Shown: positions 1,714 through 60,575 of the stretch, piece by piece | Layout: each line of letters starts with the position of its first letter | Position numbering within the stretch: the first letter of the stretch is position 1 | Assembly: GCA_038727135.1 (NCBI GenBank) | Contig: JAVYWL010000001.1 | Location: 512,001 to 576,000 of the forward strand | Direction of reading: 5' to 3' | DNA: 64,000 nt | Source of the DNA: Candidatus Bathyarchaeia archaeon | Lineage (GTDB): Archaea; Thermoproteota; Bathyarchaeia; Bathyarchaeales; Bathycorpusculaceae | Notes under the pieces: model-generated | The model's input: only the letters and a program-made list of their open reading frames with translations | Databases searched by the model: none | What the model was told of the DNA's origin: nothing | Translations under genes and position numbers: made by a program

Positions 1714-2427
1714 TTAAGTGGCCTCCGTTTCAGCTCTTTTCAAAAATTTCTCCATTTCCTTCTTCACACTGTATTTGAAGGGGATTTTACTTGAGTCCCT
1801 TTCTAAATAACCTTCCTCGTAGAGCCTCTTCATAAGCCTAGCTGTGTGCTCCCTGCTAAGCCTAATCCTCTCCTTAATTTCCGGGGCTGTTTTTGGGCCC
1901 TCAGCGGCCAACATCTCCAACACAGCAAGCTCCGTTTCAGTTAATTTGGCTAATGCCTTCTCTCTCTTTATTGGTATGGCCGCCTCAACTCCGATTTCAG
2001 GAAGCGTTGACACTGTTTGGGTTCTCTCTTCAATCGTTGAAACTTTAGCGAGAACCTCTTTTTGTGCTTCGGTAACGTCACGGGTCTGTTTCTCTATATC
2101 GTTTAGTCGAGTTAGCATCTTCTCCTTGTCCTCAAAAAGCTCCTTCGCCTTGTCTTCCAAGAGTTTTAGCCGATTCTCCATGTCTTTAACGGCCTTTAGC
2201 GCATCGGTGCCCTTGGCAGAAGCGGCTTCAATCTTATAAGAAATGGTTTGTAAGACGTCTGTCGCATGCTTAAGCTCCCTACTGAAGCTCAAGATTATAT
2301 CGTTAAATGCTTCCTTGGCCTTCTCGTACTCTTTTCTAATTTTAACAAGGTTCCTATAATACTCTACAGCAGCACCAACAGCCACTGCCAGAAAGATGCT
2401 CGAGATAATAATTAAGAGATCAACCAT
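1714..2427 (-). CDS. Membrane-anchored coiled-coil protein with C-terminal winged-helix domain
   Basis: N-terminal hydrophobic helix, heptad-rich middle, LTETELAVLEMLAAEGPKTAPEI...SREHTARLMKRLYEEGYLER. Confidence 0.85.
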   Translation of the reverse strand: MVDLLIIISSIFLAVAVGAAVEYYRNLVKIRKEYEKAKEAFNDIILSFSRELKHATDVLQTISYKIEAASAKGTDALKAVKDMENRLKLLEDKAKELFEDKEKMLTRLNDIEKQTRDVTEAQKEVLAKVSTIEERTQTVSTLPEIGVEAAIPIKREKALAKLTETELAVLEMLAAEGPKTAPEIKERIRLSREHTARLMKRLYEEGYLERDSSKIPFKYSVKKEMEKFLKRAETEAT

Positions 2428-2692
2428 GTGATGCCTCCTGTGATTCTTCTGTAATATGTCGTGACTTTAACATGTTACATCACACATCACAGTTTTAGCC
2501 TAAAAATCATTTAAAGATTGTGGTCGCCGTGAAGACTTATGACGTCACAGGTCACGAATAGATGCGTCCAACGTTATCTTATCCTTTTAAAGAAAACCTC
2601 GTTTTTGCCTTCTTCTTCCATTTGGCCCTATTTTTCACTTCCTTTATCTGCAATAGGGACTTGTAATTTTCTCTGTGATTTGTGATGTCACA
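2427..2692. repeat. Cluster of short YGTGAY / RTCACR motifs
   Basis: TGTGAT at 2427, 2439, 2674, 2681; ATCACA at 2479, 2486; GTCACA at 2544, 2687; CGTGAC 2460; GTCACG 2551; further near-matches. Confidence 0.7.
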
Positions 2693-3239
2693 TAAAACCT
2701 TCCGATGGGTTTGAGAGTACATTTAAGCTGTTTTCAAGCTCTTCCCTTAACATTTTAAGGATTTTTATTTGTTCCTCTGGCTGCTCGATTTTGTTTGACA
2801 GACCTTTGTGGGCGTTAATGTATTCTTGCAGTTTGTTTGCGATTTCAATATATTGGTCAAGTGCTGTGCTTTCAAAAATTCCTAAATACCCTAAAAGCAG
2901 CACTGTGTAAACCGCTTTTATGACATTTTTTTGCGCTTGCTTTAAGGTTCTATTGAAGGCCCCGCGGCTTATTTTTGCCTTTGTTAGGCGTAATTTGGCT
3001 TTTTCATCGTATTTCATCGGTTTTTCCGAAAAATTTTCGGCTAAAATGTCTATGAGCAGCGTTTCTAGCTGCGTTTTTGTCAGGTGGCTATTCTTTGTGA
3101 GTATTTTGACTATGGGATCTTCTAAAGACTTTTTTAACCATAATTGAACGCTGTTTTTCAACATTTCAGTTTCGCCACTATTAGCTATGCTTGTTGAATA
3201 CACTTTTGTATACAGGCTTTTAAGAGTTCTGTTCAACAT
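2688..3239 (-). CDS. Hypothetical HTH protein (Tfx/sigma-region-4-like)
   Basis: LTKTQLETLL...ISRGAFNRTLKQAQKNV resembles the Tfx-type HTH; true start probably at the internal MLKNSV. Confidence 0.65.
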   Translation of the reverse strand: MLNRTLKSLYTKVYSTSIANSGETEMLKNSVQLWLKKSLEDPIVKILTKNSHLTKTQLETLLIDILAENFSEKPMKYDEKAKLRLTKAKISRGAFNRTLKQAQKNVIKAVYTVLLLGYLGIFESTALDQYIEIANKLQEYINAHKGLSNKIEQPEEQIKILKMLREELENSLNVLSNPSEGFM

Positions 3240-3314
3240 TTAAAAGTACGCTTTCAAGACGCAACCATTATATGCTAAAGCATATAACACGTAGTTCGAG
3301 GAGAGCGTTTAACA

Positions 3315-4488
3315 TTGCAATTTAAGGCTTCTGAACGCCTAAAAAACATAAAGCCCTCTGGAATTCGCCGATTTTTCGCTTTGGCCCAAGAATTTCCCGG
3401 CATTATCAATTTAAGTGTTGGAGAGCCGGATTTTACACCGCCGATGCATGTTTTGGAGGGAGGATGGAAGGCAGTATTAGAGGGCAAAACCCATTATGCT
3501 CCAACTAATGGCATTCCAGAACTTCGAGAGGCTCTAGCTGAAAAGGCCCGTAAAGAGTACGGTCTTAAGTATGACCCAAACTCTGAGGTTTTGGTCACTG
3601 TTGGCGGTACAGAAGCTATTTCCCTTGCTTTAATGGCTCTGGTCAATCCAGGCGACGAAGTATTAATCCCTAATCCTGGATTTGTTTGCTAGAGCCTAGT
3701 GTTAGATTGGCAGGTGGGATTCCTGTTTCAATTCCAATTTTGGAGGAAAAGGGGTTTAAGCCTCCGTTGATGATGTGACGTCACTTATCACGGAGAAATC
3801 ACGTGTGATGATTTTGAACTCTCCAAATAACCCAACAGGGGCTGTTCTTTCATATGATGAACTTAAAGCATTAGCCAAAATAGCTGTTGAGCGTGATTTG
3901 ATTGTGATTTCGGATGAGGTTTACGAGAAAATAATCTATGATGGAGAAAAACACTGTTGCCTAGCGACGTTTCCGGGGATGAAGAAGCGCACCTTAGTTG
4001 TAAACTCTTTTTCTAAAACTTATGCTATGACGGGCTTAAGAGTTGGTTATGTTTATGGCCCTAAAGAGCTTATTGCTCACCTATGGCTTTGCCACCAATA
4101 TTTTACTGCTTGTGTTGATACCTTTGCACAGTATGCGGCGTTAGCCGCTTTGAAAGGGCCACAAGACTTTGTTAAAGAGATGGTGGCTGAGTTTGATAAG
4201 CGAAGGCGCTTCGTCTTTAAGAGGCTGAATGAGATTGGAGGATTTAGATGTAACCTCCCGAAAGGCGCCTTCTACATGTTTCCAAGCATAAAAGCCTTTA
4301 ACATGTCTTCGGAGGATTTCGCCCAACTTCTGCTTAGAGAAGCACGTGTTGCCACTGTGCCGGGTTCTGCTTTTGGTTCTTATGGTGAGGGTTACATCCG
4401 GATTTCCTACGCCGCAGCCTATGAGCAACTGGAAGAGGCTTTTAACCGTATGGAGAAGGCTGTTAAAAAGCTTAAGGGCTCTTGTTAG
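3315..4488 (+). pseudogene. Class I/II PLP aminotransferase (AspC-like), interrupted by two 1-nt deletions
   Basis: ORFs 3315-3692 and 3775-4488 join via a third frame (EPSVRLAGGIPVSIPILEEKGFK); NSPNNPTG, DEVY and SFSKTYAMTGLRVG motifs intact. Confidence 0.8.
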
Positions 4489-5318
4489 AGCTTTTCTGCT
4501 TTCTCCTTTAGTTTGTCGAAAAGTTCCGGGCGCAAATCTTTCAATGTTGGGACAAAGGCTTCAATAGGCTTTATGTTGGCATAATTTACTTCGCCCACCA
4601 CGAGGTCTTCCTCGTCGTATTTCGCCTTTGCAATTATTTTCCCGTTTGGGGCTATTAGTCTGCTTCCACCCCAGAACTGCAGTCCATCTTCTATGCCTAC
4701 AAGGTTTACATAAGCAAGAAACACCGCATTTTCAATAGCCCTAGCAACCGTTAGAGTCTCGAAAAACGATTTGCGAACGGCTGGCGAAGCTGAAATACAG
4801 ACAATCATTTGAGCGCCTTCTAAACGTGTTAGCCGGCAAACTTCTGGGAAAAAGATGTCATAGCATATTATTAGCCCAATTTTTCCAATGGCTGTTTCGA
4901 AGGCACTTGCCTGGTAGCCTTGTCTAAAATATCTCTTCTCCTCAAAAACGCTGTGGGTTGGTAGGTGCATCTTCCTATATTTCCCAATGTAACCTTCCGG
5001 TCCTACGAGAACTGCAGTATTGTAAATGGTTGCTTGTGCCTTTTCGCTGAGTTCCGGCATCCCAAACACTATGTAGACTTTATACTTCTTCGCGATTCTT
5101 TCGATTGCATCGGTTGATGGCCCTGGGATTCTTTCTGCCAATTCATAAAGTTCATCCCTTACCGTATATCCTGTCAGTGAGAGTTCGGGGAAAATAACGA
5201 GCTCTGCACCTTTTCGCTTTGCTTTTACAGTGAATTCTTCAATTTTCTGTATGTTTGCCTTTTTATCTCCCCGTTGGCAGCTTATTTGGGCAAGGGCTGT
5301 CAAGAATTTTTCCTTCAA
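4485..5318 (-). CDS. Carbon-nitrogen hydrolase (nitrilase family)
   Basis: FPEL, YRKMHL, ICYD catalytic E-K-C triad. Confidence 0.9.
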   Translation of the reverse strand: MKEKFLTALAQISCQRGDKKANIQKIEEFTVKAKRKGAELVIFPELSLTGYTVRDELYELAERIPGPSTDAIERIAKKYKVYIVFGMPELSEKAQATIYNTAVLVGPEGYIGKYRKMHLPTHSVFEEKRYFRQGYQASAFETAIGKIGLIICYDIFFPEVCRLTRLEGAQMIVCISASPAVRKSFFETLTVARAIENAVFLAYVNLVGIEDGLQFWGGSRLIAPNGKIIAKAKYDEEDLVVGEVNYANIKPIEAFVPTLKDLRPELFDKLKEKAEKL

Positions 5319-5330
5319 ATTTTTCCTTCC

Positions 5331-6170
5331 TTATCTTGTGAATGGTATTCTAAAGTCAAATCCAGCGGTCCTATATTGAAGTTTTGTTGTTAGCGGCATC
5401 CTTCTCTTATGTTCCATTTTTAGCCACCGCTCTTTTACCCTTTCCACCAAGTCTTTTTGCAGGCCTAGCTGTTCAGCTATATCCTCTATTTTCATGAAAT
5501 GCTCAAGTCCGTATAGGATAAGGTCTAACGTTTCATATTTTATCCCTAATTCTTCCTCTGCCGTTTGCCCGGGCCACAATGTGGGGGATGGCGGTTTCTC
5601 CACAATTTCTTTTGGTATGCCCAAATGTCTTGCAAGCTTTTTCACTTGGGTTTTGTAAAGGTCCATTATTGGAGATATGTCTGCTGCTACATCTCCCCAT
5701 TTAGTGAAGTAGCCCATCATCGTCTCCGACTTGTCAGAGCTTCCACACACTATCAGGTTAAGCTTGTTGGCGTAATAATAAATGTAGAGCATACGCATCC
5801 GTGCTTTCAAGTTGCCCTTAGAAAGCTTATCTTCAGCATCAAAAATTGGTAGCGTTTTTTGGAGCGCCTCCAATGCCGGTGTGATATCTATGGCTTCTGT
5901 TTTTAGGCCGAACTTTTCTGCCACAAGCCTTGCGTGCTCCATGTCTTTTGGGTTATATGTTTCCTTCTCTGGAAGCATAAGTCCCAAAACCTTGTTTCCT
6001 CCCACGGCTTTAGAAGATAGTGCTGCCACTGTGCTACTGTCTATGCCGCCGGAAAGCCCTAAAACAATGCCGTTAGCCTTTGCCTTTTCCACATAATCCT
6101 TTATGAAACGTGTTATCTTCTCTTCTACTTCCGTCCAGTCCAGCTCCAATACTGATGGTATCAATTTCAA
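5331..6170 (-). CDS. nadE: NAD+ synthetase
   Basis: LGLSGGIDS, GNLKARMRM, GYFTKWGD, LYKTQV, PSPTLWPGQ. Confidence 0.95.
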   Translation of the reverse strand: MKLIPSVLELDWTEVEEKITRFIKDYVEKAKANGIVLGLSGGIDSSTVAALSSKAVGGNKVLGLMLPEKETYNPKDMEHARLVAEKFGLKTEAIDITPALEALQKTLPIFDAEDKLSKGNLKARMRMLYIYYYANKLNLIVCGSSDKSETMMGYFTKWGDVAADISPIMDLYKTQVKKLARHLGIPKEIVEKPPSPTLWPGQTAEEELGIKYETLDLILYGLEHFMKIEDIAEQLGLQKDLVERVKERWLKMEHKRRMPLTTKLQYRTAGFDFRIPFTR

Positions 6171-6272
6171 AGGGTTTCATCCTCACTGTTTATGGGATTA
6201 GGCAAGTATTTAAGGACGAAGATGGGATAATGAATAGGTGTAGCCTTAAACACGTACGTGAAGGATTGGTGT

Positions 6273-6542
6273 ATGGGGCGTAGAAGGCGGAAGGTTGTCC
6301 GAATTCCAAAGAAGCGTTTGCCAAAATTCTTCTCATGCCCTATTTGTGGAAAGGCCTCGGTTCGTGTTGAAATGTTCAGGGATGAGGGAAGAGCTGTTGT
6401 AAGCTGCGGTAATTGCGGTGCAAAAGAGGAGTTTCCAGTTAAAGGTGCCCTTGGCGAGATAGACGTGTACTGCATGTTCACCGACAAGATCTACGGCGGG
6501 GTTAGGCGACTGCCCGCCCCAGAGGTTAAGGAATCCGCATAA
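6273..6542 (+). CDS. elf1: Transcription elongation factor Elf1
   Basis: MGRRRRK...[11 protein letters not shown]...CGNCG...IDVYCMFTD. Confidence 0.9.
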
Positions 6543-6557
6543 AAGGATGGATAGCTC

Positions 6558-7310
6558 TTGATAGGAGCTGTTGAAAAATATCTGCTGGATAAAATCAGTT
6601 CAGAGGGGTCGATTCACATAACTCTGATCGACCCCGAGAAAGTTACGCCTTCTCAAGCCTCAGCAATAGCCAGAAAAGCGCGGGCTAGTGGGACGTCTGC
6701 AATAATGATAGGGGGCTCGACTTTTATCTCGGCTAAACACTTAGATGACGTTGTTAAGACGGTTAAGCGGGCTGTGGATATCCCTATAATCCTATTTCCA
6801 AATAATGTCACTAGTATTAGCCGTTATGCGGACGCCATATGGTTCATGTCTCTCCTAAACTCCCTTGATCCGTACTTTATTGTGGGAGCGCAGGTTTTAG
6901 GCGCGCCCTTGATTAAGAGGTACCGCCTCGAGCCGATTCCGCTGGGCTACATTATTGTTGGTGAAGGTGGGACAGCTGGCATTGTGGGGAAGGCTGTTCC
7001 CATACCTTATGATAAGCCGGAATTGGCTGTTGCTCATGCATTGGCGGGGCAGTATTTGGGCATGCGTTTCATTTACCTCGAAGCGGGTTCAGGTGCCAAA
7101 AAACCGGTTCCCAAGGAAATGATTCGTGCTGTGAGGAAAAGCATTGATGTTCCTTTAATTGTTGGTGGAGGAATAAGGACAAGGGCGCAGGCACTGGCGG
7201 CAGCATCGGCAGGCGCGGACATTATTGTTACAGGCAATGTTGTTGAGAATGGTCAGGTTAGGGACAAGGTTTCAGAGATTGTTGAGGGCTTGAAAAGCTG
7301 TAAAGCGTGA
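6558..7310 (+). CDS. Geranylgeranylglyceryl phosphate synthase
   Basis: LIDPEK, IMIGGST, IYLEAGSGA, VGGGIR, IVTGN. Confidence 0.95.
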   Translation: MIGAVEKYLLDKISSEGSIHITLIDPEKVTPSQASAIARKARASGTSAIMIGGSTFISAKHLDDVVKTVKRAVDIPIILFPNNVTSISRYADAIWFMSLLNSLDPYFIVGAQVLGAPLIKRYRLEPIPLGYIIVGEGGTAGIVGKAVPIPYDKPELAVAHALAGQYLGMRFIYLEAGSGAKKPVPKEMIRAVRKSIDVPLIVGGGIRTRAQALAAASAGADIIVTGNVVENGQVRDKVSEIVEGLKSCKA

Positions 7311-7446
7311 CACTGCTTATAAAGTTTGCATTTTCTTGTATAAAACTTGATAGCTTTGCCGCTCCAAGGCAATGGCGTCTTTGCCTCTTACTTGTTAGAA
7401 AACAGAAATATGCAACTACCAGCCAAATGAAGTACCGAGTGGTTGA

Positions 7447-10400
7447 TTGGACATTCTGATGAGCAAATCCTACGAAAAATACATCGAGGCTTTAGAAAAA
7501 CAACTCGGGCAATTATACAGCGTAGCCGCCAAAGCCCGAGAAAAAGGCCTCGACCCCGAATTTAAGCCTGAATGCACAATTGCAAGGGACATGGCTGACC
7601 TTGTTGAGGGGCTTGTCGGTCCCAAAGGCGTTGCTGAAAGAATACGGGAGTTAAGCTCAAAACTCTCGAGGGAGGAGCTTGCCTTTAAAATTGCTGAGGA
7701 AATTGTTTATGGAAAGTTTGGGCATTTGGAGCCTGAAGCTGCCGCTGAGCAAGCCATACGCACGGCCTTGGCTATTCTCACGGAGGGGGTTACCGCCGCC
7801 CCCATACAAGGCGTTGCACAAGTTAAGATTAAAACTAACCATGATAGGTCAAAGTATTTGGCTATCTACTTTGCTGGTCCTATACGTTCTGCTGGTGGCA
7901 CAGATCAAGCGCTCACATTAGTCATAGGTGACTTTATTCGTAGGATTCTTGGGCTTGACCGTTACAAGCCCACGGAAGAGGAAATCGCTCGCTTCGTTGA
8001 GGAGGTTAGGCTTTATGAACGCAGTGTCAGTCGCTTCCAATATCATGTTTCAGACGAAGAGTTACAGAGGGCGCTACGCTGGCTGCCAGTAGAAGTTACC
8101 GGCACAGAATCTGACCCTGTGGAGGTTTCAGCTTACCGTAATCTACCTCGCATTGAAACCAACAGGGTTCGAGGCGGAGCATTGCGTGTGGTTAATGATG
8201 GGATTGTTGGTCGGGCCTCGAAGGTTTGGGCTATTGTGGAGAAATTGGGCATCCAAGGCTGGGATTGGCTTAAGGAAATCCGGAAAATGTCTGAAAAGAA
8301 AGCGGCTGGTTTTATGGACGACATTGTTGCAGGACGCCCCATATTCTCCTTTCCGGGCAGCCGTGGAGGCTTCCGCCTACGATATGGAAGGGCAAGAAAC
8401 ACAGGATTAACAGCTGTGGGCGTTCATCCAGCCACGATGCTTGTTCTTCAAGGGTTTATTGCAGCGGGCACTCAGCTTCGCCTTGAGCTTCCAGGGAAAG
8501 GTGGAATCGCAGTGCCTGTTGATGCTTTAGAGCCGCCAATAGTGAAGTTAAGAGACGGGTCAGTTGTGCGCGTCACCTTGGAAAATTTCAGCGATGTTAA
8601 AGACAGAATTGAGAAAATCTTGTTTTTGGGTGACATCCTCATAAGTTTTGGCGATTTCCTTTACCAAGGGAAAAGCCTTGTTCCTGCCGGATATGTTGAA
8701 GAGTGGTGGGCTGGAGACTTAAAAAAAGCCATAGCCGAGAAGTTTGGAGGAGATTTTGAAAAGGCTGCGGCTGCCGCCGGGATACTTGTTGAGAGGCTTA
8801 AAAGTTTTCTTGGAAACCCGTTTGTGAATAAGCCGACATGCAAGGAGGCTATAGCACTTTCACTAAATGTTACAATTCCGCTTCATCCAGCCTATACCTT
8901 CTTCTGGTCCAGTTTAGGTTCCGTTGAGGAGCTTAAGCTTCTTAGGAACTGGGCGCTTACGGCTAGTGTGGAGTGTGATGAGGGCTTCGCTCACCGTATA
9001 GTTGGTAAGATGGATGAAAGTGTTAAGAAGGCTCTGGAAGCGATATGCTTGCCCCATAAAGTTGTTGGTGGCAATATAGTTGTTGAAGGGGATGATGCGT
9101 GTGCCTTCACCTTCTGCCTTGGCATTGGTAAGTCTGACGTTAATTTTCGACAAGTGGGAGATGTTTTGAAGGCTATTGAGGAACTTTGCGGTGTGGTTGT
9201 TAGGGATAAGGCTTCAACTTTTATTGGTGCAAGGATGGGGCGCCCTGAGAAGGCTAAGAGGCGGGAGATGAAACCTCTTGTGCATGTTTTGTTCCCCGTG
9301 GGTTTGGCTGGTGGTTCTCAAAGAGATGTTTTGGAGGCTGCCAAACGTGGAAACGTTTACGTGGAAGTTGTCAAGCGCAAGTGTCCTCCATGTAAGACAG
9401 TTGCCTTTGGGAGAAAGTGCCCCGCGTGTGGTTCTGAAACGATTTTGGAGCATGTTTGCCCAAGATGTGGAAGAACCCTCAATGGGGGCGGCGAATGTCC
9501 GGTTTGTAAAGTTTTTGCGGTTCCCTATCAGCGGCAATACGTTAACATAAGCGAGCTGCTGGACCAAGCGTGCAGCCATCTGGGTGTTTCGTCGCTGAAG
9601 ATTTTGAAGGGTGTTAAGGGCTTAACCAACGAAACTAAGACTCCAGAAATTCTAGAGAAGGGTGTTTTGCGGGCAAAGTATGACTTATCCGTATACAAGG
9701 ATGGCACTATTCGCTTTGATGCAACAAACGCTCCGTTAACACATTTCAAACCGTCGGAGATAGGGATTTCCGTTGAGAAACTTGTTAAGCTTGGTTACAC
9801 AACTGATGCTTATGGCAATCCCCTAACAAGTCCGGAGCAGATATGCGAGCTGAAAATACAAGATGTCATCATCCCAATTAAGTGTGCAGAATATTTTGTT
9901 CGTGTGGCAAACTTTGTTGACGAACTTCTCGTGAAAGTTTATGGACTGCCAGCATACTACAATGTTAGGAACATTGAAGACCTTATCGGTCACTTGGTTA
10001 TTGGTTTGGCTCCTCACACATCTGTTGGCATTCTTGGACGGATAATTGGTTTTACAAGCCTAAATGTTTGTTATGCCCATCCAGTTTGGCATTCTGCCAA
10101 ACGGAGGGACTGCGACGGCGACGAGGATGCGCTAATGCTTGCACTAGACACATTGCTAAACTTTTCAAGGGTTTTCTTGCCAGCGCAAATAGGCGGAATA
10201 ATGGATGCTCCGCTGCTGCTGATATCTGTTGTTAACCCAAAAGAGGTGCAAAGGCAAGCCCACGACTTTGATGTGGCTGAAGCCTATCCATTAGAGTTTT
10301 ACCAGAAAACTTTGGAAAAAGCTGAAGCCAAACATGTTAGCCCACTAGTAGACCTCATCGAATATCGCCTTGGCACAGAAGCACAGTTTGAAGGCTACCA

Positions 10401-10863
10401 CTTTACAGTTCCCGTTTCAAACATTAATATGGGAAATGAGGAAAGCTCCTACAAACGCTTCAAAACCATGGTGGAAAAGCTTAACGGCCAGCTGGCACTC
10501 GCGGAGAAAATTGAGGCTGTGGACGCCAAAAAAGTCGCCTTAAAAGTCTTGACAAAACATTTTATCCGCGACATTGCCGGAAACCTTCGGGCCTTTTCAA
10601 TGCAAGGGTTCCGATGCAAATCTTGCAATAAGCGTTTTCGACGTTTGCCACTACGGGGTAAATGTCCAACATGTGGTGGAGAGCTAACCTTGACAGTCTA
10701 TCGAGGTGGCATAGAAAAGTATCTTGAGGCTGCTGAGCATATAATTAAGAAGTATGATTTGCCACGCTACTATAGTCAACGGATTCTGCTTGTGAGGGAG
10801 GAGATTAACTCTTTATTTGAGGGTAAAAAGCCAAAACAAATTAGCCTAACAAGCTTCGCCTAA
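7447..10863 (+). CDS. polC: DNA polymerase D large subunit DP2
   Basis: AGPIRSAGGT, GGFRLRYGR, catalytic RRDCDGDED, C-terminal Zn finger and PIP box QISLTSF; no intein. Confidence 0.97.
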   Translation: MDILMSKSYEKYIEALEKQLGQLYSVAAKAREKGLDPEFKPECTIARDMADLVEGLVGPKGVAERIRELSSKLSREELAFKIAEEIVYGKFGHLEPEAAAEQAIRTALAILTEGVTAAPIQGVAQVKIKTNHDRSKYLAIYFAGPIRSAGGTDQALTLVIGDFIRRILGLDRYKPTEEEIARFVEEVRLYERSVSRFQYHVSDEELQRALRWLPVEVTGTESDPVEVSAYRNLPRIETNRVRGGALRVVNDGIVGRASKVWAIVEKLGIQGWDWLKEIRKMSEKKAAGFMDDIVAGRPIFSFPGSRGGFRLRYGRARNTGLTAVGVHPATMLVLQGFIAAGTQLRLELPGKGGIAVPVDALEPPIVKLRDGSVVRVTLENFSDVKDRIEKILFLGDILISFGDFLYQGKSLVPAGYVEEWWAGDLKKAIAEKFGGDFEKAAAAAGILVERLKSFLGNPFVNKPTCKEAIALSLNVTIPLHPAYTFFWSSLGSVEELKLLRNWALTASVECDEGFAHRIVGKMDESVKKALEAICLPHKVVGGNIVVEGDDACAFTFCLGIGKSDVNFRQVGDVLKAIEELCGVVVRDKASTFIGARMGRPEKAKRREMKPLVHVLFPVGLAGGSQRDVLEAAKRGNVYVEVVKRKCPPCKTVAFGRKCPACGSETILEHVCPRCGRTLNGGGECPVCKVFAVPYQRQYVNISELLDQACSHLGVSSLKILKGVKGLTNETKTPEILEKGVLRAKYDLSVYKDGTIRFDATNAPLTHFKPSEIGISVEKLVKLGYTTDAYGNPLTSPEQICELKIQDVIIPIKCAEYFVRVANFVDELLVKVYGLPAYYNVRNIEDLIGHLVIGLAPHTSVGILGRIIGFTSLNVCYAHPVWHSAKRRDCDGDEDALMLALDTLLNFSRVFLPAQIGGIMDAPLLLISVVNPKEVQRQAHDFDVAEAYPLEFYQKTLEKAEAKHVSPLVDLIEYRLGTEAQFEGYHFTVPVSNINMGNEESSYKRFKTMVEKLNGQLALAEKIEAVDAKKVALKVLTKHFIRDIAGNLRAFSMQGFRCKSCNKRFRRLPLRGKCPTCGGELTLTVYRGGIEKYLEAAEHIIKKYDLPRYYSQRILLVREEINSLFEGKKPKQISLTSFA

Positions 10864-10909
10864 AGTGAAACCTTTTCTACACCCTCATTACAAAAATGTT
10901 TTGATGGAC

Positions 10910-11173
10910 ATGCCACGGGAAGGGTATCACCCCAACGCTTACCTTAAGGACTTTAGAAACGTTAAGCTGGGCTTGAATGCGCGCACCCTAATACTGAATT
11001 TTCTTGAGAGGTCTTCTGCGGATGCAAAAACAATTGCTAAAGAGACAGGCTTGCCCTACAACGTGGTCTTGCATCACCTAAAACTTCTAGAATTAAAGGG
11101 AATTACAAAAAGGGAAAGCAAGCGTCCATCTGTTTGGGCTTTAACTGGACTTGGACAGAAACGTTTAGGTTAA
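10910..11173 (+). CDS. Small ArsR-like winged-helix protein
   Basis: AKTIAKETGLPYNVVLHHLKLLELKGI. Confidence 0.75.
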   Translation: MPREGYHPNAYLKDFRNVKLGLNARTLILNFLERSSADAKTIAKETGLPYNVVLHHLKLLELKGITKRESKRPSVWALTGLGQKRLG

Positions 11174-44107: not shown

Positions 44108-44217
44108 GGCGTTTCGCCTTTCAAACCATGCAGAACAGCAACCAAAATAAATGTTGTGGAAATTAGAATATTCGGGCATTAAACGAAAACATGCTTGAAG
44201 AGCGTACCAAAATGAGC

Positions 44218-44239
44218 GAGGGTTGGTGTGTCTGGGTTA
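44218..44239 (+). repeat. attL core
   Basis: GAGGGTTGGTGTGTCTGGGTTA, identical to 48992-49013; preceded by the original host start ATG AGC at 44212. Confidence 0.95.
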
Positions 44240-44399
44240 GGATACCACTATTATTATTGTCATTAGTAGTGTTATTACTTATATTTTCCATCTTATTCCC
44301 TCAAATCTTATGTAGAGTAGAATAATTATTAAATTTTGTTAAAACTTATTTTTTAAGGGTATTTAAATAGGAGTAGAGATAAGAATAATATTGACCTCT

Positions 44400-44645
44400 A
44401 TGAGTAGAAAAGTAAAATTGTATGAGAGAGTGGAGCCTCCCCAAATTGTAAGACCCAGAAGAGTGGCAGAGTATGATGAACTTATTAAATCCATTGAAAG
44501 TGAACCAAAGGGATGGTATAAGGTGACAATTCCTAACAGAAAGCCTTCCACAATCTTTGTGGCTCTAGCTAAAAAACTCAGAGGTAGAAGAGACCTTAAA
44601 CTCCATTTCATAAACAAAACAGTATACATTGAAAAAATAGAATAG
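44400..44645 (+). CDS. Element small basic protein, possibly DNA-binding
   Basis: 81-aa K/R-rich ORF downstream of a TTTAAATA box. Confidence 0.65.
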   Translation: MSRKVKLYERVEPPQIVRPRRVAEYDELIKSIESEPKGWYKVTIPNRKPSTIFVALAKKLRGRRDLKLHFINKTVYIEKIE

Positions 44646-44773
44646 ATTCCTCTAATCTATATATATTAAGAGTTAAATCTAAGACAATTCCAAGTTCTAA
44701 ATAGTTACAGTACAATATAACAGTAAGGTTTAAAAGCCACTATACTACTTCTTGTACTACTTGGTGATAGGGT

Positions 44774-45418
44774 ATGTCTGATTCAAATATATTGTACCAT
44801 AAATCAAGAGATTGCATTATTGCCTCTAACTTTATTGAAGACCTTCCAATGAATTTGTCTGACTTAGAACAAAGAGCTATAGTAATATCAGCATTGGAAA
44901 AGCTAAAACAAAGTTTGAAAAATACTGATGTAATAACAGACATAGATATTCAGACTATTAGGCTTTATTGTTCTAAAATATTGGATTTAATAGATTATTT
45001 AGAAAAACAAAATAGTGAAAGCTATACGAAACTTATCAAATATCTAAAGGATACATTGAACATTTTAGAAGAATATATAAGAAGCTATTACCATAAGGTG
45101 GAAGCACTCCCAGAATATTCTAGATATGAAAAAGAGTACTGGGGAAGATATTTTACTGACAAGGATTATTATCCACCTTCTTATTATTACTGGAACAAAT
45201 ACACATCTAAAAGTAAACCCATCTTTAAATATATTGATAGAATTACTGGTAAATTAGAATTGACTGAAGAGGCTAAAGATGCAATATTCAGGGAAATAAC
45301 TGTACCTGACAGTAGAAAATACATTTGGGACAGACCTGAAATGACATTTGAGGAATTGATGCAGTATACTTTGGAAAAGTTACAAGAAAGACCAATGAGC
45401 TTAGGTCTAAAAGATTAG
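44774..45418 (+). CDS. Element hypothetical protein (may extend to 45531 through a frameshift)
   Basis: 214-aa ORF with upstream GGTGA RBS; no recognisable motif. Confidence 0.7.
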   Translation: MSDSNILYHKSRDCIIASNFIEDLPMNLSDLEQRAIVISALEKLKQSLKNTDVITDIDIQTIRLYCSKILDLIDYLEKQNSESYTKLIKYLKDTLNILEEYIRSYYHKVEALPEYSRYEKEYWGRYFTDKDYYPPSYYYWNKYTSKSKPIFKYIDRITGKLELTEEAKDAIFREITVPDSRKYIWDRPEMTFEELMQYTLEKLQERPMSLGLKD

Positions 45419-45532
45419 AACTTGAGGCTAAAGAACAACAAGAATTATCCCAAGACCCTTTACATGAAAAGATGGAATTTCTACTAAATGTTTGGTTACC
45501 TTGGGAGAAAAAGAGAATGGAGGAACAGTAAA

Positions 45533-45817
45533 ATGTCTAGGGAAATAGAACACATTAGTCTCCTACAGTTATTAAGTCACAATCCCTTAACACTAGGAGA
45601 GTTAGCTAAGCTAACTTGTGTTAATTCTGAAGCTAAACTCAATGTAATCCTAAACAAACTTGTCAAAAGAGGCTTTCTTGTAAAGTCTAAGACTATAGAT
45701 AATAGGAATCAATATATTATTACTTCTAGAGGATTGCTCTATTTATTCTACAAAATTATGGATAGGAAATTAAAAGAAGGTGATACCTATGTCACAGAAT
45801 CTAGAACAAACCCTTAA
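45533..45817 (+). CDS. Element winged-helix protein
   Basis: LSHNPLTLGELAKLT...LNVILNKLVKRGFLVK...YIITSRG; GGAGG RBS. Confidence 0.75.
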   Translation: MSREIEHISLLQLLSHNPLTLGELAKLTCVNSEAKLNVILNKLVKRGFLVKSKTIDNRNQYIITSRGLLYLFYKIMDRKLKEGDTYVTESRTNP

Positions 45818-46169
45818 ATCTCTAGAGGAAAGGATTAAAGAATTGGAGACTAAGTTTAAGGCTTTATCCTCTATCTTAGGTGAATATGTTGCACAACTAC
45901 AAGTTCTAGAGGAATCTCTAGTTAATACTAGAAATATTAAGAACACTATGACATTAGAAAAGAACAGTCTAGATTCCTATGCATATGATACTCAAGGAAC
46001 AACACCTAGAGAAAGACACATTGAACCTTCTATTCCACTATCTTCTCTAGCATTTGCTACTATTGAAGACTATGAAACTCCTACAGATGAATTGAAAAGA
46101 AAAATAGCTAATGTAGCAGAGCTTATAATAAAGACTGGTAACAAACTAGACTACATAAGTGCAAGATGA
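45789..46169 (+). CDS. Element coiled-coil protein
   Basis: LEQTLKSLEERIKELETKFKAL heptads; GGTGA RBS. Confidence 0.7.
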   Translation: MSQNLEQTLKSLEERIKELETKFKALSSILGEYVAQLQVLEESLVNTRNIKNTMTLEKNSLDSYAYDTQGTTPRERHIEPSIPLSSLAFATIEDYETPTDELKRKIANVAELIIKTGNKLDYISAR

Positions 46170-46215
46170 CAAAAATAGGGGGACTTCATCTTGTCCCCAT
46201 ATCAAGGTGGTGCCT

Positions 46216-46881
46216 ATGTCCCAACAAGTTAAATATGATGGAATGACTTTATTAAGATTTCCAGAACCTAAAAGAGATTATTGCTACAATGTTGGTAGAC
46301 TTAAAGAAGTGTTGGTTTCAGATTTGTCTGATGATATTCTCAATGATTTAGCAGAATTGCACTTTACATTGAAAGATAAGAATGCTGATGTTGTCTATAC
46401 AAAGACTAATTTAGCTCTTGAAGTTATGAATGTCTATAAACCTATACTGGATTATACTAGAATTAGAAGAATAAAGTCTAATCTTAAAGGATATAAATAC
46501 AAAGGCATCATAGTCTCAAGAATGTCTAAAGCCATGAAAAGAAGACTAAAAGGCATTCCTATCTTAGAACTTGGTTTCCAATTGCTTCCTTCTCATTATA
46601 TTTCCTTCTATAGTAGTAGACATTCCACTAAATATAGAAAATTTGTTAATAAGAGGACTATTAAGTATCTAGTTAACTGCCTATATTCTTTCTTTTTGAA
46701 GATTGGAGCTATTAAAAAGACTGTTTCCTCTAATAAGCCTAAATCTAGTTATGTAAATTCTATAGTAAATTCAAGGTTTAGTTTTAGGATAGACAATGTT
46801 AGGGATATTGTTGAAGACTTTTTGGAATATGTTTATCCATGGTTTTTAGAGGAGAGGGTAGGGTGGTTGTATGAAGGTTAG
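46216..46881 (+). CDS. Element hypothetical protein, possible PD-(D/E)XK fold
   Basis: NADVVY...LALEVMN pattern, weak match. Confidence 0.55.
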   Translation: MSQQVKYDGMTLLRFPEPKRDYCYNVGRLKEVLVSDLSDDILNDLAELHFTLKDKNADVVYTKTNLALEVMNVYKPILDYTRIRRIKSNLKGYKYKGIIVSRMSKAMKRRLKGIPILELGFQLLPSHYISFYSSRHSTKYRKFVNKRTIKYLVNCLYSFFLKIGAIKKTVSSNKPKSSYVNSIVNSRFSFRIDNVRDIVEDFLEYVYPWFLEERVGWLYEG

Positions 46882-46914
46882 CAGAGTAGCCTAGTTGAAT
46901 TCTTCAATGTACCA

Positions 46915-47223
46915 GTGGTAACTCTAAAAGATATCAAACAAGACCCTAAAATAGAATTTAATTGTTACTGCTGCACTAAGTCTAGATACTGTAGCAAATT
47001 CCAAGACTTTCTTGTTCTAAGAGAGAAGCTAAAAGGAATGAAACAATTAGCTTTGGATAGCAATATAATCAAAGCAAAAGAGGACTATAAACACTTGTTA
47101 AGGGAACTAAAGAAGGTAAGAAGTCTAATATGGAAATGTACAAGAAGAAGAACCTTTCTATTTGGACTAGGCTACAAGACATTTAGAATAGGTGGTATAG
47201 ATGAAAGAAGATGTAGAAGTTAA
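46915..47223 (+). CDS. Element Cys-containing basic protein
   Basis: CYCCTKSRYC...WKC. Confidence 0.6.
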   Translation: MVTLKDIKQDPKIEFNCYCCTKSRYCSKFQDFLVLREKLKGMKQLALDSNIIKAKEDYKHLLRELKKVRSLIWKCTRRRTFLFGLGYKTFRIGGIDERRCRS

Positions 47224-47533
47224 AACTGTTACTAAAGGAGTGATAGCAGGATTTACTAAATCCATAAATAGGATTAACAGATTAATAACTAAGAATCCTA
47301 AAAAGAGGAGTTTGATAAGAAGGTTAGAGAGAATTGGTAAATGCAATAATTGTAGTAGACCCTTTCAATTGGGTGAACAGTTCATACAAGTAGGACACAA
47401 TAAGTATCACTTAGAATGCTACAATAAAGCATTTCTAGAAGTACCTGATGACTTTACTCCAGAAGAGACATATTTTATAGAATATGGTACTATTCCATCT
47501 TATATAGTAAATACAGACAGTAAACACACATAA
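47201..47533 (+). CDS. Element zinc-finger protein (C-x2-C-x18-H-x2-C)
   Basis: CNNCSRPFQLGEQFIQVGHNKYHLECY. Confidence 0.7.
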   Translation: MKEDVEVKTVTKGVIAGFTKSINRINRLITKNPKKRSLIRRLERIGKCNNCSRPFQLGEQFIQVGHNKYHLECYNKAFLEVPDDFTPEETYFIEYGTIPSYIVNTDSKHT

Positions 47534-48084
47534 TGTAATAGAGTCAAACCCTCTCCTCTTTTTCTCTTCTCTTTTTACTTTTGTTTCCTTTTGACCATAA
47601 CCAAACCATAGGTTAGAACATAGACAGAGCCTATCTATGGAGATTTTTGTCAGTTCTTTTATAGGGTCTTGAAAAACTCCATTACTTATTTAGGATATAT
47701 CTAGACTAATCTAGAAACATAAAGAATAAAGAAAGACAAAAGGAAAAGCCAAAAGAAAACATAGACAAGACTCAAATTCTTTGTTTTTAAAGCACATTTT
47801 TATCTCTTATAGATTAGTGTAAGTGTATAGATAACACACATTTAACATTCAAAATAGAACATAGTGGAAGTGTGTTAAGGACATAGCCATTTAAGCCTAA
47901 CCTATGGTTTATATCACACATTAAAAGGTCTATTTTGTATTGACTTGGATTCTAGACAAATTGAATTAGACAAATTAGACCTTAAACATGCCTTAATCTG
48001 GATTCTAAATAGGTGATTGGACCTAAACAAGGTGAAATATATTCGAATTGTATAGAATGTAGAAAAATAGAGGATATGGAAAAG

Positions 48085-48984
48085 CTATTTCCTTTTCCTA
48101 AAGAGCATTATGTTATCAAAGGTTGTAACATAGTCATAGCCTTGTTCTATCAGACTTTTAGCTTCCTCTATTGTTTTAGCTACTGAACATACCCATTCAT
48201 TCTCATTGAAATTGACAAGGTGTGTGTAGATGAGAGTGTTTTGAATGGAGACATGACCTAGAATTTCTTTAACATACAAGATGTCTCTGGTTTTGTAGTA
48301 GGTCATAGTAGCTTTAAAATGTCTAAGACTTCTTAGAGTAATCATGTTTATTCTTGGATTTCCAAGTTTCTCAGCTATTTGTTTCCTTTTCAGTCTTAAT
48401 CTATCAGCAAAGTCTTCTAGTTTACTCTTATCATTATGTTTGAAGATGTAGATACTTACTCTAGGCAATTGATTCAACATAGCAATTGTCTGATTGGAAA
48501 CTTTAACTATCCTAGCCCTACTACCCTTAGCTGGATTATTAATTATTATAGTGTTGTTCTCAGTATTAACATCAGACCATTTAAGATTCCAAGCTTCTAT
48601 TGGTCTAGCTCCAGTATCCTTGATTACCTGACAGAAGGCAGCATACTTTAGACTTAAGCCTCCAATTAGAGCATTGATTTCACTTTCTAATGGTACAAAT
48701 GGAAGTCTATTGGTTCTCTTGTACTTTGGCTTTTCAAAGTTTATCCCTAGATATTGACAGTACAGAGCATAAGCATCTACAAGCTTCTTCTTGTAACTGT
48801 CAAGGTTCTTATTGGATATGAAAGCCTTAACCTCTTCAACATTGTTCAAGTCTACATGTTTACCTAAGTGTTTCAGAGCATAACCAATGGTTCTTAAAGT
48901 TGATTCCTTGTAGCCCTTGTTCTTAAGGTCAATGAGTAGGTTTATGATATTCTGGTTTTGTTGTTTAGAGAGTGGGTAACTCAT
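48085..48984 (-). CDS. Tyrosine recombinase/integrase
   Basis: TGARPIE (R), PAKG (K), RSLRH, LGH, TLIY (catalytic Y); abuts attR. Confidence 0.95.
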   Translation of the reverse strand: MSYPLSKQQNQNIINLLIDLKNKGYKESTLRTIGYALKHLGKHVDLNNVEEVKAFISNKNLDSYKKKLVDAYALYCQYLGINFEKPKYKRTNRLPFVPLESEINALIGGLSLKYAAFCQVIKDTGARPIEAWNLKWSDVNTENNTIIINNPAKGSRARIVKVSNQTIAMLNQLPRVSIYIFKHNDKSKLEDFADRLRLKRKQIAEKLGNPRINMITLRSLRHFKATMTYYKTRDILYVKEILGHVSIQNTLIYTHLVNFNENEWVCSVAKTIEEAKSLIEQGYDYVTTFDNIMLFRKRK

Positions 48985-48985
48985 T

Positions 48986-49537
48986 ATGGTTGAGGGTTGG
49001 TGTGTCTGGGTTACAGGGTTGCCGGGGAGCGGCAAGTCTGTTGTAGCGGAGACGCTTATCAAGTTTTTGCTTCAAAGGGGCATCCGCGCTCAACTTTTGT
49101 CTTCTGACGCTTTGCGTAAGGTTTTGACTCCTAAGCCAACATACTCGCTTGAGGAACGCGACATAGTTTACGCAACTCTTGTCTACATCGCTAAATTGCT
49201 AACGCAGAACGGTGTAAATGTTGTTATTGATGCCACTGGCAATTTGAGGCGTTATAGGGATAATGCCCGAAACCAAATCCAAAAGTTCATGGAAGCCTAC
49301 CTAGAATGCCCGCTTGAAATCTGCATTGAACGCGAATCCCGGAGGGCTGATACCCGCCAAGCGCCAAAACAAATCTATAAAAGAGCCTTGAAAGGCGAGG
49401 CGCCCACAGTACCCGGTGTTGGACAACCCTACGAGCCCCCACTGAACCCGGAAATAACAGTGAATACCGCCGAGTGCACGCCGGAGCAAGCAGCCCATAA
49501 AATACTTGAGGTTATTATTGGCAAGTGGTACGCCTAA
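48986..49537 (+). CDS. Adenylyl-sulfate kinase family P-loop kinase (integration target, restored)
   Basis: WVTGLPGSGKS, DALRK, YLECPLE, YEPPLNPE. Confidence 0.88.
   Translation: MVEGWCVWVTGLPGSGKSVVAETLIKFLLQRGIRAQLLSSDALRKVLTPKPTYSLEERDIVYATLVYIAKLLTQNGVNVVIDATGNLRRYRDNARNQIQKFMEAYLECPLEICIERESRRADTRQAPKQIYKRALKGEAPTVPGVGQPYEPPLNPEITVNTAECTPEQAAHKILEVIIGKWYA
48992..49013 (+). repeat. attR core
   Basis: GAGGGTTGGTGTGTCTGGGTTA, identical to 44218-44239. Confidence 0.95.
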
Positions 49538-60497: not shown

Positions 60498-60575
60498 TGG
60501 TGCTCCGGCCGGGATTTGAACCCGGGTCCGCGGCTCGAGAGGCCGCTATACTTGACCGGACTATACTACCGGAGC
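60498..60575 (-). tRNA. tRNA-Glu(CTC)
   Basis: Cloverleaf with GCGGC-CTCTCGA-GCCGC anticodon arm, GGTTCAAATCC T-arm, encoded CCA. Confidence 0.96.

Follow-up and report, generated by a model that had tools for sequence, protein, structure and literature searches.

The stretch of DNA analysed here (the window, 64,000 nucleotides [nt]) comes from a Candidatus Bathyarchaeia archaeon and covers positions 512,001 to 576,000 of the forward strand of contig JAVYWL010000001.1 (assembly GCA_038727135.1). The host genome is 1.55 Mb in length, in 7 contigs, and is 94.7% complete; the window corresponds to C1:512001-576000. Inserted in it is a small (4,774 bp), recently acquired, site-specific integrative element of the tyrosine recombinase type, whose DNA is almost entirely devoid of the dinucleotide CG. 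The features of this locus are listed below in window positions, with open reading frame (ORF) products in amino acids (aa) and the attachment repeats designated att.

44212-44239, plus strand: displaced native 5' end of the target gene, ending in attL (ATG at 44212, reading MSEGWCVWV...)
44240-48991: element sequence between the repeats, 4,752 bp (4,774 bp when one att copy is included), GC 0.32, 2 CG
44400-44645, plus strand: ORF of 81 aa without a family (no match in Pfam, PHROGs, NCBIfam or PADLOC)
44774-45528, plus strand: ORF214, a frameshifted copy of a 252-253-aa protein (piece 1, 44774-45418)
45533-45817, plus strand: putative winged-helix DNA-binding protein, 94 aa (weak; MarR, E 6e-4, below cut-off)
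45792-46169, plus strand: putative coiled-coil ORF, 125 aa (weak match to DUF7310 coiled coil, E 4e-4, below cut-off)
46216-46881, plus strand: ORF221, signature gene of the element family (no Pfam family)
46915-47223, plus strand: Cys-rich ORF of 102 aa without a family
47201-47533, plus strand: ORF of 110 aa with a CxxC...HxxC pattern, without a family
47534-48084: non-coding region, 551 bp, with a pyrimidine tract, short repeats and a perfect 14-nt inverted pair (47603-47616 / 47897-47910)
48085-48987, minus strand: tyrosine integrase, 300 aa, starting directly at attR (PF00589, 59.7 bits, cut-off 27.1)
48992-49013, plus strand: attR, second copy of the 22-nt repeat
48986-49537, plus strand: target gene, APS-kinase-like P-loop kinase (PF01583, 107.5 bits; apsK 121 bits, below the cut-off of 138.7)

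The insertion point lies in the first codons of the APS-kinase-like P-loop kinase gene, next to archaeal ribosomal protein genes. The element is bounded by an exact 22-nt direct repeat, GAGGGTTGGTGTGTCTGGGTTA, at 44218-44239 (attL) and 48992-49013 (attR). At the left junction, an ORF at 44191-44325 reads ...MSEGWCVWV and then continues into element DNA; at the right junction, the target gene is restored by an ATG GTT that the element supplies (MVEGWCVWV...). When contigs from four metagenome runs of hot springs (three studies) were aligned to the locus, an empty site was found in all four: one contig per run joins 44217 to 48992, with precisely 4,774 bases missing, and the 22 repeat letters match on either side of the joint. 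One of these records (X2 record 10) differs from the window by 3 and 5 letters over arms of 161 and 129 nt. Precise empty-site joints in near-identical strains indicate that very close strains carry the empty site and that insertion was both precise and recent. No back-joint of an excised circular form is present among the joints listed for the contigs of the four runs.

A host CG (AGC|GAG) directly precedes the 22-nt att core (44217-44218), and the core itself sits inside a 31-nt CG-free stretch of the host kinase gene. In the element's copy of the gene start (48986-48991), AGC is swapped for GTT, which leaves the element-supplied 5' end CG-free. The tRNA gene in the window (60501-60575, minus strand; Rfam RF00005, 62.2 bits) is unrelated to the element.

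DNA with so little CG could in principle be an assembly chimera or synthetic, as CpG-free synthetic constructs exist. The exact att repeats lie, however, inside an 820-kb host contig, precise empty sites occur in four of four runs, and natural relatives with 60-92% identity are found in several metagenomes. With empty sites in the runs and relatives in nature, we reject an artefact in practice and regard its probability as negligible.

Between 44240 and 48990 (GC 0.32) there are exactly two CG dinucleotides (45027 and 48044), where base composition predicts 120.5. The observed/expected ratio (O/E) is therefore 0.02, and the Poisson probability of finding two or fewer is 3.4e-49. A preliminary description of this DNA had located only these two CGs in approximately 4.75 kb and had argued that low GC alone would still predict many tens; both statements are borne out by the exact count and the expectation. 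CCGG, GCGC, CGCG and ACGT are lacking altogether (0 each), and TCGA occurs once. The host, in contrast, has a mean CG O/E of 0.82 (0.69-0.84 per contig), with similar values across all GC classes. The 12 lowest-CG segments among 6,143 2-kb windows of the host genome all fall inside the element and contain 0-1 CG each, whereas 24 other AT-rich 2-kb windows (GC < 0.36, two islands excluded) have CG O/E values of 0.78-0.98. The element thus differs from other AT-rich regions of its host, the comparison by which the preliminary description had proposed that the claim be judged.

The loss of CG is independent of coding. Within codons, CG is missing at positions 1-2 (0 versus 24.8 expected) and 2-3 (1 versus 29.5), and it is equally missing across the 3-1 codon boundary (0 versus 41.5) and in the element's non-coding DNA overall (1 versus 24.8). 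The two survivors are an ACG codon in ORF214 (45027) and the single CG of the 551-bp non-coding region (48044), in which 12.6 are expected. None of the 172 codons that end in C is followed by a G. In two-fold codons ending in Y, the third base is C in 0 of 59 cases before G versus 103 of 263 otherwise (P 1.3e-11), and in four-fold codons in 0 of 89 cases before G versus 53 of 302 otherwise (P 6e-7). All 82 Arg codons are AGA or AGG (CGN 0/82), and only one of 209 codons in the NCN families is NCG. In the long ORFs of the host (an uncurated set of 433 ORFs of at least 350 codons), CGN makes up 42% of Arg codons, NCG accounts for 14-20% in the four NCN families, and the C|G ratio at codon boundaries is 0.83. 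Since CG is absent at every codon position, at codon boundaries and in non-coding DNA, the constraint acts on the DNA (or RNA) word and not on codon preference or protein. Its removal costs the proteins nothing, because no residue or pair of residues forces a CG.

One way to reach such a state is mutational: CG-specific hypermutation would have removed the dinucleotide, with selection playing a minor role, either through CG methylation in some hosts combined with fast heat-driven deamination or through a context-specific deaminase or damage acting on replicating foreign DNA. Several observations would suit this explanation. The host encodes a full-length reverse gyrase (1,329.7 bits), which indicates a hot habitat; C5-methyltransferases occur sporadically in its relatives (above cut-off in 3 of 41 related genomes); five of the seven CGs in the integrase gene of the related element L022 (described below) align with TG or CA in the window copy; and a second element in the host has a symmetrised TG/CA relative abundance (rho) of 1.17. 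The products of deamination are nonetheless not in excess in the element itself, where TG/CA rho is 0.97 (host, 1.02), or in L022 (0.92 and 1.15), and the surplus is found instead in AG/CT (1.41 versus 1.03 in the host). In the host genome there were no matches to PF00145 (C5 cytosine methyltransferase), in a search for which the control was positive in 9 of 14 genomes. Moreover, CGN Arg codons have been replaced wholly by AGR, which deamination cannot accomplish synonymously. The only C5 enzyme that could be typed, from a genome of the same order (G040), is a full-length match to M.HaeIII (E 3.6e-102) and is thus HaeIII-like (GGCC), not CG-specific. As TG/CA is not raised and the host has no PF00145 match, decay by methylation and deamination is not supported. 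The preliminary description had offered long residence in a host with CG methylation and deamination as one cause; the missing methyltransferase, the TG/CA rho of 0.97 and the 82 AGR codons all speak against it, and we consider a mutational origin of any kind unlikely. Vertebrate CpG decay, which proceeds by C5 methylation and deamination, likewise produces a strong CG deficit, but the element shows no TG/CA surplus and its host no C5-methyltransferase match; with a vertebrate CG O/E of roughly 0.2, depletion in the element is also about ten times deeper. Among the variant letters at the locus, effectively 0 of 39 create a CG versus 2.3 expected, a comparison whose power is too low to count as evidence.

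The purge extends to all 16 NCGN contexts, each of which is observed 0-2 times where 6-28 are expected (both strands counted). In four partly depleted relatives, the contexts of the residual CGs approximate the flanking composition and show no palindrome bias, with the exception of GCGC (0 versus 7.1 expected in total). Together, the purge of every NCGN context and the unbiased residual CGs indicate that the purged word is CG itself and not a handful of 4-bp sites.

Other short words are also missing from the element. GATC is absent (0 versus 9.4 expected under a Markov model, or 14.0 from composition; P 8e-5) and is the lowest of 110 CG-free tetranucleotide classes. GGCC is likewise absent (0 versus 2.8-3.1 expected, P 0.06), and CAGG/CCTG is found 6 times versus 14.6 expected (P 0.01). 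The preliminary description had recorded the absence of GATC and GGCC: both counts are indeed zero, although only that of GATC is significant, GGCC falling short when taken alone. These three words are the most avoided 4-mers of the host (Markov O/E: GGCC 0.27, GATC 0.45, CAGG/CCTG 0.47). Such avoidance in the host appears to be the footprint of several restriction-modification (R-M) specificities in the lineage, and the shared loss of GATC, GGCC and CCTG from the element fits selection by host-lineage defences. The next most avoided words of the host are CGCG (0.65), GTAC (0.72) and GCGC (0.73). The element does not avoid GTAC (12 versus 10.7) or CTAG (30 versus 36.4, Markov), and TCTAGA is present 11 times versus 11.4 expected (Markov). 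CTAG and TCTAGA, described previously as frequent, are so as counts (30 and 11) but are not enriched beyond lower-order composition. Because both stand at Markov expectation, their abundance simply follows from how often the codons AGA, NCT and CTA are used, and TCTAGA was rejected as a functional motif.

Four N6/N4-type DNA methyltransferase genes are present in the host at three loci, each beside a large ORF without a known family, and one of these adjacent ORFs matches PADLOC REase_II (E 6e-40). The candidate nucleases next to the methyltransferases are at C3:86152-87702, C1:163535-164515 and C1:122324-124150. At C1:120281-124150, a tandem pair of N6/N4 DNA methyltransferase genes precedes a 608-aa ORF (the REase_II match); this locus looks like a type IIS-like R-M system. 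McrBC was not found in the host, and Mrr_cat gave only two weak, small matches.

A bare 2-nt motif purged in all contexts is also what a short protospacer adjacent motif (PAM) would predict: if CG were the PAM of a local CRISPR-Cas system, a CG-free element would be neither sampled nor targeted. The host genome does not favour this explanation, as two k-mer scans revealed no CRISPR array, there were no matches to Cas2 or Cas7/DevR, and its three Cas1 genes are solitary. We know of no CG PAM, and consider this explanation extremely improbable. The three Cas1 genes (C3:91520-92338, C5:3965-4777 and C1:802292-803101; E 1e-45 to 1e-47) may be of the casposon type, and the C3 copy stands in a block with a methyltransferase and an integrase.

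Depletion of CG is not confined to the window copy. Among 5.8 billion proteins, ORF221 has five homologues (60-92% identity, on contigs of 1.1-5.4 kb) and ORF214 has four (70-79% identity, all 252-253 aa, on contigs of up to 6.5 kb). With a profile of ORF221, 81 representatives are recovered (E<=1e-3); of the 401 genomes in the order, 8 contain the family. All seven non-self ORF221 loci lie in AT-rich islands with CG O/E values of 0.07-0.78, versus 0.8-1.2 in their flanks, and the window copy is the most extreme of the family. The highest in-gene values, 0.59 in G021 and 0.72 in G728, both belong to loci in which the ORF221 gene contains stop codons.

A metagenome contig (L022) carries a relative with an integrase 67% identical to that of the window, inserted at the same place of the orthologous kinase gene (MEKGWCIWITGLPGSGKS). 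It retains 11 CGs versus 48.5 expected in 1,628 element bases. In three other relatives of the integrase (P0013, P0015 and P0018; 64-79% identity), the N-terminus is extended by residues that read the antisense of the kinase P-loop, which places their insertions at the same site. Counting the window copy, this host gene is therefore the target of at least five family members.

CG loss was rejected as a trait of the integrase family, since CG is normal at the 11 loci (41-50% identity) that hold the best non-self homologues of the integrase in 40 related genomes. An integrase homologue 50% identical to that of the element lies on a 110-kb contig labelled Candidatus Bathyarchaeota. Scans of IMG/VR with the integrase, ORF214, ORF221 and alignments A1 and A2 returned no relatives, and an att-derived pattern gave eight chance matches there (CG O/E 0.71-1.41). 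A scan of genome contigs yielded only a Pedobacter integrase, 27% identical, and a tblastn search with protein P0008 against plasmids and phages gave no match.

A second integrative element of the host genome lies at tRNA-Cys (C1:307757-312908), where exact 30-nt repeats enclose 5,122 bp. Its tyrosine integrase is 32% identical to that of the first element and its other ORFs have no Pfam family; it has a GC of 0.33 and a CG O/E of 0.23 (33 versus 143.6). In another genome, a 9-kb CG-poor island (L033; G030:C27:50001-68000, at about 2000-11000; O/E 0.07-0.68) adjoins the topoisomerase VI subunit A gene and carries genes for an integrase, a GNAT protein, a PLD-like nuclease, an AAA_21/AAA_15 ATPase (defence-like) and a distant ORF221 homologue.

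The lack of CG might be the signature of a donor, the element residing mainly in another, CG-poor host. The contigs that encode the closest ORF221 and ORF214 homologues are 1.1-6.5 kb long, and three of them bear the labels of unrelated archaeal bins (Micrarchaeia, Conexivisphaerales and Saccharolobus). Short AT-rich contigs would, however, be easily mis-binned, and we read these as mis-binned element contigs, some of them perhaps free forms. In addition, the family's repeated use of one host gene and the element's sharing of the host lineage's avoided words both argue for residence in this lineage, and we know of no cellular genome with a CG O/E near 0.02. We judge a donor signature very unlikely.

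A physical cause is another alternative. CG steps stiffen DNA, and a small circular replicon in a hot cell, or a genome packed into a small virion, might be selected to be flexible and hence CG-free. CpG depletion of thermophilic bacterial genomes has been tied to predicted bendability and to reverse gyrase (Forni et al. 2024, PMC11282364). The element resembles those thermophiles in hot habitat, in a host with reverse gyrase and in a depletion that does not depend on CG methylation, but differs in that theirs is moderate and genome-wide, whereas here the host stands at 0.82 and only a mobile element at 0.02. That depletion ignores sequence context would also agree with a physical cause. Against it, the host chromosome keeps its CG at the same temperature, the joint loss of GATC is left unexplained, and no capsid gene was recognised in the element. 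Four classical viruses of hyperthermophiles, too, show far milder values: CG O/E is 1.02 for the whole SSV1 genome, and 0.62, 0.48 and 0.90 for 10-kb stretches of SIRV2, AFV1 and STIV, respectively. On balance, physical selection seems quite unlikely to be the main cause. The 10-kb AFV1 stretch (L055; AJ567472 3000-13000) has the same word pattern as the element, with 0 GATC, 0 GGCC, 45 CTAG and a CG O/E of 0.48.

Searches of the element's ORFs against Pfam, PHROGs, NCBIfam and PADLOC returned nothing besides the integrase and weak helix-turn-helix and coiled-coil matches, leaving five ORFs without any family, and no capsid, virion or replication gene was recognised. ORF221 has no family in Pfam, and neither do ten long relatives. 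AlphaFold2 models were of low confidence (predicted local distance difference test [pLDDT] 37.7 for ORF221 and 54.7 for P0008), too poor for a structure search, and a search of the ESM Atlas gave no match of 0.9 or more. The 94-aa winged-helix ORF has weak matches to ORF80, Sta1 and Lrs14 (E 0.004-0.008). The 551-bp non-coding region is a candidate origin or control region.

ORF214 is interrupted. Its profile gives two matches, to residues 1-236 (with a TAG inside) and, in another frame, to residues 200-252; the C-terminal 53 residues can be read in another frame at 45370-45528. The frameshift lies near an A-run around 45395 (region 45370-45531) and could reflect post-integration decay, sequencing error or slippage.

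The integrase matches phrog_1 integrase (E 3.6e-26) and is XerA-like at 86 bits (below the cut-off of 220). ORFs at 44163-44291 and 48085-49062, both on the minus strand, read ...TQTHQPS through att in the same frame, and the free form of the element may encode approximately 25 additional N-terminal integrase residues. Such read-through would suit an attP inside the integrase ORF, as in archaeal integrases of the SSV type, whose gene is split by integration; yet a start codon is also found directly at the att border, and it is at this point that the integrases of relatives P0012 and P0014 begin. The integrase has no PF16795 match and no similarity to fusellovirus integrases at E<=1e-5; a tblastn search of 50,697 phage and virus records gave three matches, all bacterial phages. 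Against plasmid and phage collections, its matches are only 25-30% identical, and all but one are bacterial or from bacterial phages.

Among known elements, the small integrative plasmids and virus satellites of the Sulfolobales (the pRN family, pSSVx and pSSVi) offer a close comparison, sharing a size of approximately 5 kb, a tyrosine integrase, a conserved host-gene target and small winged-helix regulators (here the weak ORF80 and Sta1 matches). Unlike these, the element has no RepA primase-helicase and no fusellovirus integrase match, and its target is a protein-coding gene instead of a tRNA gene. It is either a plasmid or a virus satellite.

The data show the purge, its independence of coding, the precision of the insertion and the trend within the family; what drives the purge is inferred. 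Our preferred explanation, held with slightly less than even confidence, is that natural selection removed CG from the element through a factor of the host lineage, with the DNA itself as its object instead of codons or proteins. An element moving between strains would meet a factor that recognises CG in incoming DNA. This factor might be a nuclease; alternatively, a methylase that marks CG might work together with methyl-directed restriction. Copies with less CG would survive better, and a genome of 4.8 kb could reach zero CG without cost to its proteins; the same pressure would strip GATC, GGCC and CCTG. Following integration and decay, the constraint would relax and CG would drift back toward the host level.

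Avoidance of restriction sites, that is of short words, is known from prokaryotic viruses (Rusinov et al. 2018, PMC6286503). In the same way, the element loses words that its host keeps or protects, and, like the AFV1 stretch, it has lost GATC and GGCC completely. What it avoids is nevertheless a 2-bp step in all 16 contexts and not a site of 4-8 bp, and the CG step has no known cognate enzyme. The preliminary description had pointed to selection against CG-containing restriction or methylation targets. This is the better supported of its two proposals, given the coding-independent purge, the co-loss of host-avoided words and the R-M genes of the host, although the target is the bare CG step and not a few 4-bp sites.

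A number of points weigh against selection by a host-lineage factor. Our confidence in it is limited because the analysis turned up no reader of CG and because, to our knowledge, no restriction enzyme has a 2-bp CG site. Ordinary avoidance of 4-bp sites is insufficient to account for a purge of all NCGN contexts and for residual CGs that occur everywhere except in GCGC. The host chromosome itself is not CG-poor, and six of the eight integrase loci in the host genome have normal CG, so that not all of its mobile elements are affected. The link between decay and regain of CG is drawn from very few loci, and the closest relatives (79-92% protein identity) are represented here by their proteins; the contigs of such relatives include those encoding P0001 (5,389 bp), P0008 (6,502 bp), P0012-P0016 and P0018. 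Finally, Rusinov et al. (2018, PMC6286503) report site avoidance to be weaker in temperate than in non-temperate viruses, yet this element integrates.

It is possible, though doubtful, that hot-spring Bathyarchaeia or the defences of their community hold an unrecognised system that reads bare CG in incoming DNA. Such a system might couple a CG-wide methyl mark (N4-methylcytosine would suit a thermophile) to a nuclease, or its nuclease might be methyl-directed and attack DNA that had received a CG mark in an earlier host. Under either scheme, small integrative elements would have to lose their CG in order to persist.

No CG-free archaeal element was found in the literature searched, the coverage of which excludes subscription journals and supplementary files. 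A preprint on Bathyarchaeia viruses (PMC10541130) contains 0 occurrences of 'CpG' or 'dinucleotide' in its text, supplementary files excluded. Word avoidance in mobile elements was already known (Rusinov et al. 2018, PMC6286503); what is new is that a dinucleotide has been purged to such an extreme, whatever its context, and that this has happened in a small archaeal integrative element whose gene family had not been described. Little has been reported on the mobile elements of Bathyarchaeia, which are uncultured, and the family defined by the cargo genes of this element has no known domain.

The words that a mobile element avoids reveal what its host is able to see in foreign DNA, and the loss of 98% of a two-letter word argues for a pressure outside the current catalogues of archaeal defence. 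The case is notable in that the element is demonstrably mobile, its host keeps CG and there is no signature of methylation decay. If the cause were physical, through DNA stiffness at high temperature, this would be the cleanest case yet of such an effect on one replicon and not on its host. CG-free element DNA beside CG-normal host DNA at the same temperature forms a natural substrate pair, and a family with graded depletion makes the selection measurable. The finding suggests that something in these archaea reads or damages CG in incoming DNA.

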